Shown piece by piece: positions 53,632 to 60,534 of a stretch of 64,000 bases of DNA. How positions within the stretch are numbered: position 1 is the first letter of the stretch; every line of letters starts with the position of its first letter. The translations under genes were made by a program, and so were the position numbers. A model generated the notes under the pieces. The model searched no databases. It was not told the DNA's origin and saw nothing but the letters and a program-made list of their open reading frames with translations. The stretch is from Candidatus Obscuribacteraceae bacterium (GTDB lineage Bacteria > Cyanobacteriota > Vampirovibrionia > Obscuribacterales > Obscuribacteraceae). The stretch is taken from positions 64,001 through 128,000 of the forward strand of contig JBGASG010000003.1 in NCBI GenBank assembly GCA_044229845.1. Reading direction: 5' to 3'.

Positions 53632-56600
53632 TTAGAATCGGAAGAGTCGGCCGAGCAGACGTCGCAATAGCGGGCGACGCAGACGTGGCAGGAAGTCCTC
53701 TTCGTCATCATCTCCATCCGGACAGGGTCCCGGTCCAGGGCACGGTCCATCCGTCCAATCGTCATCGTCGTCATCCGGACCGCACGGTCCCCAGGGACTA
53801 TATGGACCATCGGGACCAGGTTGATTGGGTCCCCACGGTGAGTCGTTGCCGCCCCAGTTGTTGCGCCGCACACGTCCACCGCCATTTTCTTTGACCCACT
53901 GACGAATGTCGCGAATGCGGCTGATGACGCGATCGTTTCCTTCGCCGTGTTGATCGTCTTGAATGATCACCCAGCCGTCACCGTCTCGCTTCAGGTGGCG
54001 AGAGCGCATGTGCCCCGGAGCGTAAGTGATATAGGCACCATTGAGCAATAAGGTGTCCCGCTCGCTGCCGTTGACCAGGTGAGAGCTGTCGGACATGATG
54101 TCGCCCGTGATCTTGTAGATGATGTTGCGGCATCCGGAAGAGCCGCCATAGTTACCGCCGTTCGGCTGCCGGCGGTCGCCGATTGCCGAGCAGGTTTCGT
54201 CGAGAATCTTGCCGATCGGGCTGCGCATGCCGTTGTTGAGCGCACTGTTGATGGTCCAACGCTGCTCTTCATATCCCATGGAAAGCATGCGTCGGCTGAA
54301 CTGATAGGTCTGCGGTCCGCCGCCGCGCTCGCCACCGTTGAGAGTTCGGAAGGAACCCCAGGAAGCTTCTTTGACAAGACGCGCCAGCGAATCAGGATGG
54401 TTCATCATGGCGGAAATGTGACCAGCCTGCATCCAACAGGTGCCGTTTGCTCCCTGATCCATGGTGCTGGGATCCTGGGCGTGGAACAAGAAGTTCTCCA
54501 CCAGTTTCACGCGCATGGCTTGATCGTAGTAGGCGCCGGGTTTGTCCGAGACAACAAGAGCAGCCAGATGATCGTAGGTCTGGGAGACAGCGGCTTGCGT
54601 CGCTTCTTCCACCTTGGACTGATCGCGCCCGCCCAGCACCTGCAACATGGCGCGGTCGGCCATGCGCTTTTCGAACTCTGTCATCATTTTTTCCAGTCGC
54701 TGCCGCCGACCTTCGTCCATCTTGTCGGCGACTACTTCCATGAGTCGCGAACGAGCGTCGTCGACCGATTCGGAGAGCCAGCCGTCGGCACCATCGATGG
54801 TGACACCCATCTTGGCGGTCTTCAGCTTGGCGTCGCCGGGAATCTTGTATTCGTATTCGCCGTCGCGACATATGTTGAGATTCTCCCGCACGCGCGGCTT
54901 GCTGCTGCCGGGTGCCGGTGCCGCCAGGAACTGATTGGTCAGCGTACCGTCGGCATTCGCTTGCCTGGTCCAGGCTTCTTTCACTTCACCGGTCGGCTTG
55001 CGATCGACGATTTGGGCCAGTTCTTGCTTGTCGCCGACCGTGACGTATTTGAACTCGCGGCTGGAGCCGTTCGCCGCCCTGGCTAAGAGGGTGTTACCAC
55101 CCTTATCCAGTTCCAGGTGAACGAAATTGGCTCGCTCGATAACAGCACCATTTGTAGTGGCATAACTGAAATCGCCTTCGGAATTGATGTGCAGATTGCT
55201 GGCGTCTTTTTGCACCGCGGCATCGAAGACGACCTTCTCACCCGACTTGCCGTCGGTGTCGACAACCCGCACCACCTGACCGTTCTCTCGTATGAAGGAA
55301 CGATGGTTGTTGCCTTTGGTGATGCCGGTGACTTCGCCGTCCTTGAAGTCGACGCGCACGTTGTCCTTTCCGATCACGGCCAGGGTGCCGTCGGTGCCCT
55401 GCAGATACTTCTTGTCACCGCCCGTGGTGAAACTCAGTTCACCCCTCTCGGTAACGGCAAGATTCAGCCGGTCGCCAGGATAGTTCTTGGAGTCGGAAGA
55501 CCAGCGTCCACCGGCGTTCGTAAAGGTCACCGTCTCGCCGGTATGGTTGTTGAACATGCGGATTTGCGAATCGGTGATCTGATATGTGTCGCCACCCCTG
55601 GTGCGCACAAACGTCAACTTGCCGGCTTCGTCGTAAGTGGCCCGCGAGCCGTCGTCTGATTCTTTGAAGCGCACACGACCACGCGAGTCATAGGCGGTCC
55701 GGTTGCCTTTCTCGTCGATGTCGTCTCGCGTTTCTGTGCCGTCTTGCCAGATTGTCGACCACTTACCGTCGCGCGAACGACCTTGTGAATCGGTATACCG
55801 GCGCGAATAGACACCATTGTCCGAGAGCATCGCCTGCCCGTACCAGCTCTGAGTGCGATAGCCTTCCGGCGTTTTCACGTCCCAGTGCAGCGACTTGGCG
55901 TCGGCGCGTTCATTTATATAAGTAGTGCCGCGCTTTTTGTCCGAGACCGTAATCGACTTGATGTCTTTGCTGTCGCCGAAATACGAGAAGTCGCGAACTT
56001 GATCCAAGCCGGGCCATTCGATGCGCGTAATCCGATTGTGATCGTCGAAGGTGAATTTAGCTTTGCCTTGCCCTTGCTGGCATACACTGCCGTCACCGCC
56101 GATGCGGAAGTTGTCACCCTCCGGCGTGTCGTAAGAAACAACACCGGAAGCATCCAGCTTGAAGTTCTTGCGATGCAGATTGGGGTTTTGTATGCAAACC
56201 CAGTCACCGCCAGCCTGCTGTTTCCACTCGATGCTCTGACCGGTGGCAGATGTTTCTATAATGGTATTAGCGTCGGTTTGAGAGACAAACGATCGATCGC
56301 GGCGACTGATGGTGCCGACTCCGCCGCGGTCGTTCAATGTGACGATGGAGCCGTCGGCATTCTCTTTCTCTTGAGTAACGGTGCCGTCAGCTCTCTCAAG
56401 CTGCCAGAGTCCGGGAGTTCCCAGTTCATATCGAAAGTCGCCGGTCACCCTATCGAAACGAACGCCGCCGTTGCCGGGTAAGGCAAATTCCATACCCTGG
56501 AATTTGGCGAACCACTTTCCATCACGATTCACCAGTGTCGACTTGCCTTCGGCGCTGGTGGTGACGATTTCGAGGGGCTGACCTTTCTCGTCGGCTCGGG

Positions 56601-56874
56601 TGATTTCGCGAGTCTTCTCGCGGCCGGGATAGGTGATTTTTGAAATCAGATTCTGGTCGTCGCGCTCAGTCTTCCTGCCATCATCGATGGTGACTTTCGG
56701 AAGCTCTCGCTCCAGCTGCACCTTGTCTGATGCGGCTAGTTGGGCGACGCGTTCGTTGATCGCACGCAAATAGCTGTCGACATCGATGCTGGCGTCGGCG
56801 ACGGCTGACGTTTCGAAAAGGGGCTCTGGACCAACGAATGTTTGGTCTGGACGGGCAGATATTGGGGTGCTCAT
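53632..56874 (-). CDS. Large beta-repeat (YD/RHS-like) protein with C-terminal papain-like Cys peptidase-like domain
   Basis: YDSRGR/YDEAGK-type repeats; QGANGTCW, PGH, DDQHG; acidic Pro/Gly tail. Confidence 0.8.
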   Translation of the reverse strand: MSTPISARPDQTFVGPEPLFETSAVADASIDVDSYLRAINERVAQLAASDKVQLERELPKVTIDDGRKTERDDQNLISKITYPGREKTREITRADEKGQPLEIVTTSAEGKSTLVNRDGKWFAKFQGMEFALPGNGGVRFDRVTGDFRYELGTPGLWQLERADGTVTQEKENADGSIVTLNDRGGVGTISRRDRSFVSQTDANTIIETSATGQSIEWKQQAGGDWVCIQNPNLHRKNFKLDASGVVSYDTPEGDNFRIGGDGSVCQQGQGKAKFTFDDHNRITRIEWPGLDQVRDFSYFGDSKDIKSITVSDKKRGTTYINERADAKSLHWDVKTPEGYRTQSWYGQAMLSDNGVYSRRYTDSQGRSRDGKWSTIWQDGTETRDDIDEKGNRTAYDSRGRVRFKESDDGSRATYDEAGKLTFVRTRGGDTYQITDSQIRMFNNHTGETVTFTNAGGRWSSDSKNYPGDRLNLAVTERGELSFTTGGDKKYLQGTDGTLAVIGKDNVRVDFKDGEVTGITKGNNHRSFIRENGQVVRVVDTDGKSGEKVVFDAAVQKDASNLHINSEGDFSYATTNGAVIERANFVHLELDKGGNTLLARAANGSSREFKYVTVGDKQELAQIVDRKPTGEVKEAWTRQANADGTLTNQFLAAPAPGSSKPRVRENLNICRDGEYEYKIPGDAKLKTAKMGVTIDGADGWLSESVDDARSRLMEVVADKMDEGRRQRLEKMMTEFEKRMADRAMLQVLGGRDQSKVEEATQAAVSQTYDHLAALVVSDKPGAYYDQAMRVKLVENFLFHAQDPSTMDQGANGTCWMQAGHISAMMNHPDSLARLVKEASWGSFRTLNGGERGGGPQTYQFSRRMLSMGYEEQRWTINSALNNGMRSPIGKILDETCSAIGDRRQPNGGNYGGSSGCRNIIYKITGDIMSDSSHLVNGSERDTLLLNGAYITYAPGHMRSRHLKRDGDGWVIIQDDQHGEGNDRVISRIRDIRQWVKENGGGRVRRNNWGGNDSPWGPNQPGPDGPYSPWGPCGPDDDDDDWTDGPCPGPGPCPDGDDDEEDFLPRLRRPLLRRLLGRLFRF

Positions 56875-56954
56875 TGTGATTCTTGCCTGCAACTTCGGAG
56901 CAGAAAGAATCAGCGAATGCGACGAATTTCTTAGAACTTAACCCTGATGGATGG

Positions 56955-56985
56955 AGTCTAGCCTCTCCGTCGTGGAATTTTTGTG
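56955..56985 (-). promoter_or_regulatory. Putative promoter of the 1080-aa gene: CAC-N8-CAC-N11-TAGACT
   Basis: Same architecture as the three upstream sRNA promoters. Confidence 0.55.
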
Positions 56986-57079
56986 TCACGAAACGTGCAC
57001 GCATGGGGAAAACCGCATGCGACAACCGCCTACAAAATCGACCTGAACGAAACCAAAATGGAAAACCCAAAGGGCTGCC

Positions 57080-57169
57080 AAAAAGGGAGAAAGCCAACCA
57101 TTACTGGTTGACTCCCCTTGTTTCCGGTCCCGCAACCGGTTACAAACTTGTTTCGCTGCCAAGCGAATA
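57080..57169 (-). ncRNA. Putative sRNA, copy 1
   Basis: UUCGC/GCGAA 5' hairpin, AACCGGUUGCGGGACCGG core, terminator hairpin + U5; -10 TACACT at 57175-57180. Confidence 0.7.
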
Positions 57170-57174
57170 TCAAT

Positions 57175-57204
57175 AGTGTACTGCCCGAGAGTGCATTTTT
57201 TGTG
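57175..57204 (-). promoter_or_regulatory. Promoter of sRNA copy 1: CAC-N8-CAC-N10-TACACT
   Basis: Motif and spacing conserved across copies. Confidence 0.6.
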
Positions 57205-57308
57205 AAATGCGTAACTCTGTGTAGCTATGAGCTTTCTCACCTTCCTGCATTCTGAAGGGGGAAAACACGCATGAAATCGCCGCTCACCGCGATTTCTAAA
57301 AAGCCTCC

Positions 57309-57393
57309 AAAAAGAAAGAGAGCCACAACTGGCTCTACTCCCTTAATGCCGGTCCCGCAACCGGTTATAAAATCGTTTCGCGAGTGCGAATAT
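57309..57393 (-). ncRNA. Putative sRNA, copy 2
   Basis: Same 5' hairpin and core; AGAGCCA/UGGCUCU terminator + U-tract; -10 TAAGAT at 57398-57403. Confidence 0.7.
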
Positions 57394-57397
57394 GAGT

Positions 57398-57427
57398 ATC
57401 TTAGGCACAACTGGTGAAAAATTTGTG
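57398..57427 (-). promoter_or_regulatory. Promoter of sRNA copy 2: CAC-N8-CAC-N10-TAAGAT
   Basis: Motif and spacing conserved across copies. Confidence 0.6.
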
Positions 57428-57475
57428 ACACGTAAGGGTCCACCCAAAGCCCCGATAGAGGCGATTTTTCAGCAT

Positions 57476-57566
57476 AAAAGGAAAGGGACCAACCTACGAA
57501 TAGTTGGTCCCTTTCCATTTTTCCGGTCCCGCAACCGGTTACAAAGGTTTTTCGCTGGAGCGAATG
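57476..57566 (-). ncRNA. Putative sRNA, copy 3
   Basis: Same 5' hairpin and core; 14-bp terminator stem GGAAAGGGACCAAC/GUUGGUCCCUUUCC + U4; -10 TACTAT at 57572-57577. Confidence 0.7.
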
Positions 57567-57571
57567 TACTG

Positions 57572-57601
57572 ATAGTATTGCCACTTCGTGAAAAAAACGT
57601 G
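57572..57601 (-). promoter_or_regulatory. Promoter of sRNA copy 3: CAC-N8-CAC-N10-TACTAT
   Basis: Motif and spacing conserved across copies. Confidence 0.6.
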
Positions 57602-57619
57602 GCAAAGGACCCCTTTTTT

Positions 57620-58291
57620 ATGGCCAAAACAATCGAAGACGTACGGGCTCTGATTTTCGATATGGACGGCGTTTTAGTCGACTCAGAACCCCTGCATCTC
57701 CTGGCGTACCAGGAACTGTTTTCGGTGCACTCAATTGAATACACCGAGACGCACAACCAGGAATTTTTGGGCTGCAAGGACATCGCAATGGCACACATCC
57801 TGGTGGAGCGCTGGAGCTTGCCGTTTACGCCGGAGCAGCTGGTCCAGAATAAAGAAACCATTCTCGCTCGCCTGCTCAAGTCGGATGCTCAGATTCGACC
57901 GGGGGTCAAAAAGCTTTTGGAAGAAGCGCGAGCTCTGCAGATTCCATGCGCGGTCGCATCCTCCGCAACGCTGCCAACCATCCAGCTGGTTGTTGATGAG
58001 CTCGGTATTCGCCAGTATTTCCATCATCTGTCCTCCGGAGACGAAGTTGAGCACGGTAAACCGGCGCCGGATGTTTTTCTGCTGGCAGCAAAACGGCTCG
58101 GGGTGGGGCCTGAGCACTGCCTGGTCATCGAGGACACCGCCAACGGCATCAAGGCGGCTAAAGCGGCGGGAATGTTCTGCATCGCCATTCCATGCGACGC
58201 CACCCGCCACCAGGATCACTCACAGGCAGATATGAACCTCACCAGCCTGGAGGAAGTGTCTCTCAAGAGCTTGATTGCGTGCGCTCTCTAG
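57620..58291 (+). CDS. HAD family phosphatase (beta-PGM/CbbY-like)
   Basis: FDMDGVLVDSE, ASS, GKPAPD, IEDT..G; AAGGA RBS. Confidence 0.92.
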   Translation: MAKTIEDVRALIFDMDGVLVDSEPLHLLAYQELFSVHSIEYTETHNQEFLGCKDIAMAHILVERWSLPFTPEQLVQNKETILARLLKSDAQIRPGVKKLLEEARALQIPCAVASSATLPTIQLVVDELGIRQYFHHLSSGDEVEHGKPAPDVFLLAAKRLGVGPEHCLVIEDTANGIKAAKAAGMFCIAIPCDATRHQDHSQADMNLTSLEEVSLKSLIACAL

Positions 58292-58314: not shown

Positions 58315-60534
58315 CTAGTTGGGCTGTTGCTCGAGTTCCGGCGCGCCGGGAACGGCAATGCCCATCTTAACCATGGATACTTTTATAGATTGCCAGTCTC
58401 CGCCATTGGAATTGGCGAACAGCTGGTTAAGCGCGTCATTGGTGATTGGACCACCGAGTTGCTTGGAGATGTCTTGAACGACTGTAGCGATCTGGGCTTG
58501 ACCCAGTTGGGCGTTAACCAGTCCTTGAGCTGCTTCCACTTCGGCGATTGCCGAGAAGGCTCCAGCCGCAATCAAAGCACTCTTGATGGCCGACAGTTCC
58601 GAGTAAGCGCCGAGCAGTTCGCTGACGTGACCGAGACTGATTTCCGCCGGCGCCAAGCCGCCCACGCGTCCGGCAATACCGGTGGCGCTGGCCGCCACTG
58701 CGCTTGCATGCGCCGCGACCGGCAGATCATCGCCGTCGGTGCCGGTGGCGAGCTTGAACAAGCCGCTATCGAGTTTGTCGCCGTTCAGGCCAAAGAGGTC
58801 GCCGGTCAATCCGTCAATCTTGAAGCCATCGGCGAAGTCAACGACCATGTCCCGGATATTTATCACCGTATCGTTGATGAACTTGGTGAAGTCGTTGAAG
58901 AAGGTTGTACCGTTCGAAGTTGTTTCGCTGTTGTTCTGAGTATCGATGGTGAACGGCTGTGACTCACCAGAACGCGGATCCATGTGATACACGTACGGAT
59001 TTGAGTCATCCGACTCGAATTGCGGCGTGTCCATCGATCCCGGTTTGCCGATGACGACCTTGGCGGTGTTGCTGTCGACATCGCTTTGCCCGGTTATGGC
59101 TACGCTGGGAGCCAGGTCGGGCAATGTGATCGGCTTGCCGTTCGGATCCAGCTTGCATGCGCCCGGCTGTTCGGGATCGTCGTCGGTTTGATCTTGCTCG
59201 CCGCAAGCACCGGTTTGCACCGAGCTCTTGCCGTCTTCGGTGGCGGTAACAGTGGTGAACGTGCCGCGACCTTGTGAGTTTTTCACAGTGGTCTGGTTGG
59301 AATCGGCGGCGATCACTACGCCTTCCTTGGTAGAGACGACGCCGTTGGGATTGACTGTCGCGCCGGCCATTTGCAGAGTGCCATCAGGCTTGACGGTGAC
59401 ACCGTTCGACGCATCAGCGGCGATGGCATTATTGTCTTTATCGAAGACTTGATAGCTGCCGTCCGGTCTGATCAAGACGCGCTCACCGGTCTTCAGGTGA
59501 ATTTCTTTGCGTCCATCAGCGTGGGCGAAAATTTCGGTTTGATCTTGTGTGGTGACTTTGATGACGCCGTGATCGCGTACATCAATGTCCCCGGCCGGTG
59601 GTTGATCGGCAGCGGCGGTTGGCTTGTTGGCTGGCTGCTCCTCGCCGTCTCCCGGCTTGTCGTCGCCCGGTTTGTCATCACCGTCACGGTGGCGGCGATG
59701 GCGGTGCTGGTGGATGGCGATGCCGCGATCCAGTCGGTTCAGAACTTCTTTGTCAGTGATCTCTTGTTTGCGACCATCATGCCACTCTATCTCAATCTTC
59801 TGAATATGGCCTTCTGCGTCTTTGACGATCCTGGCTTTGTCACCATCTGCAGTGGTGAACATATCGTCGCCTTTGGCGTTCTTTTCAAAATGCCACTGGT
59901 GACCGGGCAGTCCACCGACTTCCCACTGGTGTCCGCCTTTTCCATCGTTGGCGTAACCCTTGGTGCCGTTGTGCGACTCCATCCATCCAGGTCCGGATGT
60001 GAACACAGTGCCATCGGCGTCGGTGTGAGTAACCACGCCGTCTTTTACGGTTGCAGAGCTGCCGTCTTTACCGGCATAAACACGTTCTACAGCATTGAGA
60101 TTAGTGGCAGTTTGCTGGTCGCCCTGGTCGGTTGGAGCCATGTTGTACAGGGCACGAATCTCGTTTTCGCTCTTGTCCGGCAGAAGTGAAACTGCTTCAG
60201 CGAAGCCAAAATGCGAAATTGCATCGACTGCAGCCATGGTGTTTTTCACCCAGCCGGTGGCAGTCGACCACAAACTTTCGCTCGCCAGTCCATGTTGGGC
60301 TGCATCTTTGTCGGTCGTGCTGAAGTAAGCCGCCGCTGCCTCAACTGCCCACGTCGAAGCATTACCAATAGACTTAACCCAGGAATCTTCTTCCGCTGTG
60401 TTGTCCGGATGACCAGCATCCTCTTTCGGATCCTTCGCAGCCGGATCGTCCTTATGCTGACCGTCGGCGCCATCCTGGTTGTTGGCGGCGTCGTCTTGCT
60501 TATCAGGTTTAGTGGTCGGCGCGTCAGTGACCAT
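58315..60534 (-). CDS. Large acidic hypothetical protein with beta-hairpin repeats and Ala/Gly-rich helical C-terminus
   Basis: 739-aa ORF, DG-turn repeats, no signal peptide. Confidence 0.75.
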   Translation of the reverse strand: MVTDAPTTKPDKQDDAANNQDGADGQHKDDPAAKDPKEDAGHPDNTAEEDSWVKSIGNASTWAVEAAAAYFSTTDKDAAQHGLASESLWSTATGWVKNTMAAVDAISHFGFAEAVSLLPDKSENEIRALYNMAPTDQGDQQTATNLNAVERVYAGKDGSSATVKDGVVTHTDADGTVFTSGPGWMESHNGTKGYANDGKGGHQWEVGGLPGHQWHFEKNAKGDDMFTTADGDKARIVKDAEGHIQKIEIEWHDGRKQEITDKEVLNRLDRGIAIHQHRHRRHRDGDDKPGDDKPGDGEEQPANKPTAAADQPPAGDIDVRDHGVIKVTTQDQTEIFAHADGRKEIHLKTGERVLIRPDGSYQVFDKDNNAIAADASNGVTVKPDGTLQMAGATVNPNGVVSTKEGVVIAADSNQTTVKNSQGRGTFTTVTATEDGKSSVQTGACGEQDQTDDDPEQPGACKLDPNGKPITLPDLAPSVAITGQSDVDSNTAKVVIGKPGSMDTPQFESDDSNPYVYHMDPRSGESQPFTIDTQNNSETTSNGTTFFNDFTKFINDTVINIRDMVVDFADGFKIDGLTGDLFGLNGDKLDSGLFKLATGTDGDDLPVAAHASAVAASATGIAGRVGGLAPAEISLGHVSELLGAYSELSAIKSALIAAGAFSAIAEVEAAQGLVNAQLGQAQIATVVQDISKQLGGPITNDALNQLFANSNGGDWQSIKVSMVKMGIAVPGAPELEQQPN

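Follow-up and report, generated by a model that had tools for sequence, protein, structure and literature searches.

An undescribed small RNA family with response-regulator-type promoters, present as three tandem copies in a Candidatus Obscuribacteraceae genome

Three tandem genes on the minus strand of the DNA analysed here (a stretch of 64,000 nt from contig JBGASG010000003.1 of a Candidatus Obscuribacteraceae bacterium, hereafter the window) belong to a real and previously undescribed family of small RNAs with promoters of the response-regulator type. The family totals 22 copies in 16 genomes and six genera of Candidatus Obscuribacteraceae, with two of its three helices covarying and the third never varying. 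As to the mode of action, we infer, with a probability of about one half, that each RNA is made separately from its own promoter and acts in trans by base pairing on the messages of other genes.

The 18-nt core AACCGGTTGCGGGACCGG is present in exactly three minus-strand copies in the window, at spacings of 225 and 174 nt, compared with an expected count of 0.11 and with none of 100 shuffles reaching three. A search of the 5.16-Mb genome allowing up to two mismatches revealed no further core beyond these units. Unit 1 spans 57079–57171 (minus strand, as are all features of the units) and is supported by a covariance-model match of 90.9 bits, the predicted fold and a terminator scan. Its 5′ hairpin pairs UUCGCU (57167–57162) with AGCGAA (57157–57152) around the loop UGGC, and is followed by the core at 57141–57124 and a terminator at 57117–57088 that leads into a U-tract. 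Unit 2, supported in the same manner (covariance-model matches of 82 and 73 bits), spans 57304–57394, with a 5′ hairpin formed by UUCGC (57390–57386), the loop ACUC and GCGAA (57381–57377), the core at 57366–57349, and a terminator at ~57344–57311 (upper stem 57336–57319), again followed by a U-tract. Unit 3, which is promoter-proximal to the neighbouring HAD gene, spans 57474–57568 (covariance-model match of 90.3 bits, E 3e-17), with its 5′ hairpin formed by UUCGC (57564–57560), the loop UCCA and GCGAA (57555–57551), its core at 57540–57523, and a terminator stem at 57516–57480 preceding the U-tract.

The predicted fold of each unit comprises three hairpins, namely one at the 5′ end, one in the centre, and that of the terminator with its trailing U's, with folding energies of −35.9, −35.0, and −41.3 kcal/mol for units 1, 2, and 3 and corresponding z-scores of −3.3, −4.6, and −5.4; none of 200 shuffles folds equally well. 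Per-column identity among the three units is 74%, and no reading frame is kept across the copies, which are separated by indels of 1–4 nt. A terminator scan of 1.1 kb returned six sites compared with 1.7 expected, three of these being the minus-strand terminators of the units, and the terminators with U-tracts, whose strong hairpins reach up to 15 bp, are found on the minus strand only. Across the family the RNAs are 85–110 nt in length. Two to four GGA triplets are present per RNA, one of which lies within a hairpin loop. A first-pass annotation of the window had described three paralogous minus-strand units of ~90 nt, and every detail it listed can be read in the sequence, with the UUCGC/GCGAA 5′ stems and their differing loops, the UUURUAA linker and the U-tract terminators all confirmed. 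The core stem-loop it drew, with the stem CCGGU/ACCGG and the loop UGCGGG, is corrected here to a predicted hairpin of 6 bp, CCGGUU/GACCGG, which includes a U·G pair and closes on the loop GCGG.

The three units are paralogues, and their proposed origin by tandem duplication is supported by both direct repeats and remnants. Direct-repeat families at a spacing of 219–229 nt span the boxes, 5′ ends, cores, and post-terminator spacers, and remnants of GGGGAAAAC(A)CGCATG lie at 57005–57019 and 57257–57273. A decayed fourth core, recognised from direct-repeat family D2 and by reading of the sequence, lies at 57023–57040 on the minus strand and is 78–83% like the linker and core start of units 1 and 2, with the second GGGGAAAACCGCATG spacer remnant (57005–57019) coming after it. 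The spacing of the repeat families, together with the decayed fourth core, points to tandem duplication of a unit of ~225 nt.

Selection on RNA structure, as the first-pass annotation had suggested, is evident in the 5′ hairpin and the terminator helix, where both sides have changed at four of four and nine of 14 pairs respectively. In the 22-copy alignment, which was fitted to the covariance model and hence favours a covariation result, 95.4% of cells are paired compared with 86.0% after shuffling, and changes on both sides are seen at 13 of 24 pairs compared with 6.2 in shuffles, with none of 500 shuffles reaching the observed value in either case. Sliding the partners by 1–3 columns in this alignment reduces pairing to 36–61%, and RNAalifold, run anew on the same alignment, returned the identical three helices. 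In the central hairpin, by contrast, all 22 copies have the same six pairs, except for one change of U-A to U·G, and this helix is consequently uninformative for covariation. The central hairpin is probably extended across a small internal loop by a UUUGU/ACAAR helix, predicted locally in 12 of the 15 distinct sequences and preserved in units 1 and 2, which differ within it by one exchange of G-C for A-U; we count this extension as probable only, because RNAalifold does not adopt it. The flank 5′ of the core varies between copies (UGUUA, UGUAA, UAUAA, AAGAA, GAAAA, and UGUCA), while the 3′ side UUGCGGGACCGG is invariant; in terms of a LacI-type operator, the right side is constant and the left half varies at three positions among the 22 copies.

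All three units possess a promoter of their own on the minus strand, composed of a 20-nt box, a spacer of 8 nt, and a −10 element. The box of unit 1 lies at 57208–57189 with the −10 element TACACT at 57180–57175 (PWM score 23.8 bits), that of unit 2 at 57431–57412 with TAAGAT at 57403–57398 (33.2 bits), and that of unit 3 at 57605–57586 with TACTAT at 57577–57572 (26.3 bits), which would place the start of unit 3 transcription near 57567. The three −10 elements agree with those of the first-pass annotation, in which the conserved box upstream of every −10 had been overlooked; a sigma-70 consensus scan of the locus found no promoter. In 18 of 18 promoters examined, a set that omits three near-identical copies from the congener (G001) and the copy in G076, the 20-nt box is followed by exactly 8 nt and then TAnnnT; the upstream region in G076 looks coding, with the box absent. 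The box consists of two TKYCAC half-sites at an 11-bp period, with the second half-site ending 10 bp before the −10 element. This geometry resembles that of the E. coli Pho box, and the resemblance, taken with a layout of the csRNA type, suggests by analogy that the promoters are activated by a response regulator of the OmpR/PhoB family. The layout in question, hexamer-N5-hexamer-N10-(−10), is that used to predict CiaR-dependent csRNA genes (PMC3091779).

The same box is found well beyond the array. A PWM constructed from 17 distinct 34-mers, with the three sRNA promoters among the training set, matches the source genome (G000) at 52 sites compared with eight in the reversed genome at ≥12 bits, at 30 compared with two at ≥16 bits, and at 23 compared with none at ≥20 bits. 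Most sites are intergenic, 11–164 nt upstream of an ORF, and several have additional half-sites in 11-bp register. By these predictions the box marks about 25–50 sites in the source genome, mostly upstream of large proteins that match no Pfam family: 16 of 20 ORFs downstream of boxes are without one, many of them 685–1718 aa in length, and the other four encode an OmpR-family response regulator, a LysM protein, an EF-hand protein, and a protein with a weak RHS-repeat match. Expressed as an IUPAC pattern, the promoter is present in 94 of the 104 family genomes, whereas controls gave almost no matches (10 sites compared with none in the control for the source genome), indicating that promoters of this class predate the sRNA and are more widespread.

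As a candidate for the regulator, the OmpR-family gene that has the best box of the source genome (L070/L090) was considered and rejected, as it does not co-occur with the sRNA. Its closest relatives, at 56–59% identity, are in genera that lack the sRNA, with five of the six sRNA-bearing genera yielding matches of only 42–50%, and in the congener a mere piece survives (residues 8–150, 82% identity) with an internal stop. On the PhoB model, which has a cut-off of 296 bits, this regulator reaches 153 bits, and no kinase gene lies next to it. No Pho genes are among the 20 annotated ORFs downstream of boxes, and the source genome, which is 88% complete, gave no match to the PstS family (PF12849); PhoU is present.

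The range of the family was established with two covariance models, in line with a search of related genomes proposed in the first-pass annotation. The first, built from six copies and run on 104 genomes of Candidatus Obscuribacteraceae, gave matches in 17, one of them in G060 (E 0.0044); this match and a second match in G013 were dropped as terminator-only, the core being absent from both. The second, built from 22 copies and run on 107 genomes of the order, places the RNA in 16 of them and in six of 38 genera, with all eight genomes of one genus (g13) carrying it. Three copies are present in the source genome and in its congener, two copies in each of two genomes, and a single copy in twelve. 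A core-pattern search gave 32 loci, of which 15 duplicate known copies and 17 are from outside Obscuribacterales, in coding or unrelated contexts. When metagenomes were scanned with a 21-mer from the foot of the terminator, two related contigs came up, in which the core is the same except for the base before CCGG.

The copies nearly always sit between a gene for a HAD-family hydrolase and a large, RHS-like gene. The HAD gene, a conserved left-hand anchor divergent from the array, occupies 57620–58291 on the plus strand (PF00702, 2.9e-34; PF13419, 1.4e-32), and its orthologue lies divergently upstream of the sRNA in 14 of the 15 other genomes, with 98% identity in the congener and 54–69% in the other 13. 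The large gene occupies 53632–56874 on the minus strand and encodes 1080 aa when read from the ATG at 56874; a TTG at 56892 opens the longest ORF. Its product contains no Pfam domain; as a lead only, the Atlas cluster nearest to it is a Melainabacterial one in which 62% of members have RHS_repeat (score 0.91). A co-directional homologue lies downstream of the sRNA in 12 of the 15 other genomes, with ~29–37% identity outside the genus, and a paralogue elsewhere in the source genome, 38% identical over ~1000 aa, is likewise box-driven. The large gene also has a promoter of its own on the minus strand, with a box at 56989–56970, a 9-nt spacer, and the −10 element TAGACT at 56960–56955 (20-nt PWM, 23.3 bits; repeat family D3), and a box promoter between the last terminator and the start of this gene is detected by PWM in eight of 16 loci, with a half-box in three more. 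The HAD orthologue is also present in 17 genomes from genera without the sRNA, where it has a different gene as its neighbour, and at these loci the covariance model gives terminator-like matches only (E ≥0.057).

Contigs from six RNA libraries of five studies, at a depth of 2–6, carry pieces of the array. Those at 57112–57339, 57114–57373, 57185–57374, 57095–57287, and 56864–57127, together with one at 57324–57583 that comes from a relative and has 13 differences, jointly tile 56864–57583. They bridge spacers, among them that from unit 2 to unit 1, with 56864–57127 joining the unit 1 core to the start codon of the large gene, and therefore reflect read-through transcripts or DNA carry-over rather than discrete 90-nt RNAs; the contigs carry neither strand nor end information. 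Within a 19.9-kb control stretch, much of a 739-aa gene at 58315–60534 is likewise covered by these libraries, and no contig in the six runs covers the HAD gene, a gap that proves nothing. Contigs from two studies share ends at 57112/57114 and starts at 57373/57374, which hints, weakly at best, at a read-through species extending from unit 2 to unit 1.

Searches for targets of the conserved centre gave no clear signal. In RNAduplex-type scoring across the whole genome, the energy distribution of the centre was the same as that of the reversed query, and scoring against the downstream 5′ region of each genome gave z-scores of +1.1 to −2.8 with no common site; such scoring allows very long loops, making both outcomes uninformative. 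Exact antisense words of at least 11 nt number 75 compared with 45 for the reversed query and are not clearly enriched, the longest matches being no longer than those of the control. In five of 16 genomes the 11-mer antisense to the loop does not occur anywhere beyond the sRNA gene, and no conserved pairing site is present in either neighbouring gene. Two antisense matches are regarded as leads and not as evidence, these being a 13-mer located 45 nt upstream of a TPR-like ORF (G000:C8:109725) and an 11-mer immediately next to the ATG of a gene for a secreted SNase-like nuclease (C18:170033). The loop and 3′ arm of the 5′ hairpins of units 1 and 3 likewise provide leads, with matches of 11 and 9 nt in two box-driven 5′ UTRs (C3:175552 and C22:199356). 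Enrichment of 5′-hairpin matches in box-driven 5′ UTRs is marginal and not significant (p 0.08–0.11), and a window-wise test of the 3′ arm of the unit 1 hairpin gave p = 1.7e-4 before correction for ~60 windows. With regard to protein partners, CsrA (PF02599) was found in none of the 16 sRNA-bearing genomes (66–96% complete) by a search whose controls were positive in E. coli, B. subtilis, and T. maritima, and the Hfq Pfam model gave no match in the source genome, a weak test given that the Synechococcus control was also without a match.

A separately made, regulated sRNA is the best reading of the locus, since each copy has a promoter and a strong terminator, the helices covary, and copy number varies between genomes. 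Among possible modes of action base pairing is ranked first because nearly all sibling sRNAs of such architecture act in this way; a seed locked within a 6-bp G+C hairpin with a 4-nt loop would be unusual and counts against it. For RNAs acting by base pairing, a response regulator of the OmpR/PhoB family would switch on both the sRNA promoters and the protein-coding regulon marked by the box, with the RNA forming the post-transcriptional arm of that regulon. The 5′ hairpin would shield the RNA from decay, contact with the partner may be made by the invariant centre or by the G-rich stretch just 3′ of it, and additional copies would raise the RNA dose. Foremost among the alternatives, and considerably less probable than base pairing, is a protein-binding RNA (a sponge, decoy, or handle), in which the invariant extended hairpin would be the site for a clade-specific protein and additional copies would raise titration capacity. 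The arms and loop of the central hairpin are held in 22 of 22 copies, save for the single U·G, whilst the other helices drift and covary, invariance of the kind that protein recognition typically produces; in 12 of the 15 distinct sequences almost every conserved base lies at a paired position of a long irregular hairpin, the GGA triplets would suit such a role, and the target searches gave no base-pairing target. However, the obvious partner, CsrA, is absent from all 16 genomes and no candidate binding protein emerged, and absolutely conserved stretches that include hairpins are also a feature of base-pairing sRNAs such as Qrr. Somewhat less likely again is a design that operates without Hfq or CsrA, with the invariant hairpin docking a clade-specific RNA-binding protein and the paralogue-specific 5′ loops carrying the seeds. 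If this were true, one two-component signal would fan out via sibling RNAs onto different messages, those messages being the regulon of giant RHS-like proteins in non-photosynthetic cyanobacteria.

The conserved position of the array could instead reflect a leader in cis, with the units serving as attenuators or processive-antitermination elements that set transcription into the large RHS-like gene. The order and orientation of sRNA and large gene in 12 of the 15 other genomes, the restriction of the family to loci where the large-gene module is present (the 17 sRNA-less HAD loci having another neighbour), and the RNA contigs that bridge unit 2 to unit 1 and the unit 1 core to the large gene's start codon are all consistent with such a role. 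We nevertheless consider it unlikely, given that every unit has a complete promoter and a strong terminator, that the large gene has a box promoter of its own in half of the loci and a half-box in three more, and that no alternative antiterminator pairing is conserved. An element acting at the level of DNA only, whether a cluster of regulator boxes or a LacI-type operator around AACCGGTT, with the RNA functionless, is very improbable. AACCGGTT forms a perfect palindrome of 8 bp, and the boxes are true signals at the DNA level, yet conservation is asymmetric, with the 3′ side UUGCGGGACCGG invariant and the 5′ half of the would-be operator variable, the U-tract terminators are confined to one strand, and DNA binding leaves unexplained the double changes through which the two flanking helices stay paired. 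The LacI-type operator had been raised in the first-pass annotation against its own reading, which stands, as homologues do not conserve the palindrome symmetrically. Least probable of all is a diverged member of a known family (Yfr2/Cyano-1, streptococcal csRNA, Qrr, or CsrB/Rsm). GGAAACA, a putative Yfr2 motif located 3′ of the central hairpin in most copies, counts in its favour, as does the host, a sister lineage of the photosynthetic cyanobacteria, in which multicopy Yfr2 is near-universal (PMC6778093). Against it, Rfam matches at E ≤10 are noise far below threshold, CsrA is absent, the half-site is unlike the CiaR repeat, and the linker is without an anti-SD or anti-AUG stretch.

The claim that the family is an unrecognised one holds up against Rfam. 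Rfam 15 gives no match at gathering score across the whole window, and a search of all 4227 families at E ≤10 over 56700–57800 gave four noise matches (mir-133 twice, psm_mec, and rli26) at 18–20 bits compared with thresholds of 55–100. Of the known sets to which the units had been compared, Qrr1-5 of Vibrio form a set of sibling sRNAs whose central stretch, a hairpin included, is absolutely conserved; their dose is set by copy number, a response regulator controls them, and they require Hfq and a sigma-54/LuxO promoter. The copies described here similarly share an invariant central hairpin stretch, but give no Rfam match to Qrr. The Csr/Rsm RNAs (CsrB, RsmX/Y/Z) are likewise redundant, sometimes tandem, under response-regulator control and in possession of GGA triplets, of which one sits in a hairpin loop; this comparison is excluded by the absence of CsrA/RsmA from 16 of 16 genomes, with only two to four GGA triplets per RNA here and no Rfam match from the CsrB, CsrC, or RsmX/Y/Z covariance models.

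The csRNAs of Streptococcus are the closest analogue by promoter architecture, and by that alone. According to PMC3091779, they are multicopy sibling sRNAs of ~50–200 nt with an intrinsic terminator, each gene stands behind an OmpR-family hexamer-N5-hexamer repeat 10 bp before the −10 element, and the same box also governs a protein-coding regulon. The half-site here is TKYCAC, in contrast to the CiaR repeat TTTAAG-N5-TTTAAG of the csRNAs (PMC3091779), and the linkers here (AAACAAGUUUGUAA and variants) contain neither CCUCC nor CAU, so that no stretch complementary to an SD sequence or AUG is available. Furthermore, the conserved part is a closed hairpin here and an unpaired region in csRNAs, synteny is conserved here whereas csRNA gene locations are variable, and the phyla differ. 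The family thus appears to work most like the csRNAs, yet lacks their defining features of half-site and anti-SD linker. Yfr2, from the sister host lineage, also comprises multicopy RNAs of <110 nt with a 5′ hairpin and terminator (PMC6778093). Its 5′ motif pairs with Yfr1, and it is controlled by a GntR-family regulator according to the title of PMC6191309; the units here have no Rfam match to Yfr2 or Cyano-1 at E ≤10. A full-text search found no paper on sRNAs of Obscuribacter, and a further search on Melainabacteria small RNAs returned none on such RNAs, as judged by titles and the starts of abstracts.

Whilst no concept is overturned by this family, it is the first covariation-supported sRNA family for this uncultured lineage, and its precisely defined activator-type promoter makes a putative regulon of ~25–50 sites readable from sequence alone. 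That regulon is tied to a set of giant, domain-less (RHS-like) proteins, and the placement of a response-regulator box before sibling sRNAs would constitute a second, phylogenetically remote circuit in the style of the csRNAs.

Between the sRNA and the large RHS-like gene that lies downstream of it in synteny, genomes of g13, the genus in which all eight carry the sRNA, share a recurrent ACGTG-N3-5-TCCCNCA motif (loci L020, L019, L026, L025, and L021), which is variable in position, lying either upstream of the large gene's leader or inside it, and which, in its TCCCGCA version, is the complement of the UGCGGGA loop of the sRNA. In G085, a genome of the order, the corresponding interval holds a tandem array of a G+C-rich, ~24-nt repeat resembling cgcgatcccgagggctacgcgcc (L023:1660-1850), placed 3' of the sRNA and before the large gene. 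Near the sRNA array in the window, a minus-strand ORF of 739 aa (58315-60534), with an Asp/Gly/Ala-rich N-terminus and no Pfam domain, is the best-covered part of the 20-kb neighbourhood in three RNA libraries.

The 17-nt hairpin sequence of the sRNA is also found in two MAGs from outside the Melainabacteria, labelled Krumholzibacteriia in one case and just 'bacterium' in the second, within a conserved, apparently non-coding region (L043:1380-1680 and L068:1370-1670, 81% identical to one another) for which Rfam returned no match. This probably represents one chance event common to relatives.

Outside the window, the source genome carries a box promoter of 24.6 bits at G000:C18:29496-29625, beyond which come a long hairpin (GAAAACACACUC ... 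GAGUGUUUUUC) and then a run of U's. As no ORF lies downstream of this promoter and the hairpin and U-run follow it, the locus may encode a second box-driven sRNA, unrelated to the tandem family. Amongst the 5' UTRs of box-driven genes in this genome, the hexamers TTACTA (6 vs ~0.5 expected), TACTAA (4 vs ~0.3), and CCCCTT (4 vs 0.27) are over-represented, with TTACTA and TACTAA, as in CTTACTAA, often close to start codons that have no Shine-Dalgarno sequence.

The highest-scoring box of the source genome (G000:C13:199414-199460, equivalent to L090:2915-2960) comprises three half-sites in an 11-bp register, with an OmpR-family regulator gene starting ~370–480 nt beyond it. The gene run behind this box (L090:3324-7010) continues with a TPR protein of 721 aa, along with a second regulator, the receiver and DNA-binding domains of which are split over two overlapping frames, possibly by a frameshift. 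Across the family Candidatus Obscuribacteraceae, the box sub-types TCTCAC...TCTCAC, TGCCAC...TGTCAC, and TTCCAC...TGCCAC cluster by genome, and this grouping of promoter sequences suggests several paralogous OmpR-type regulators that would recognise related half-sites at equal spacing.
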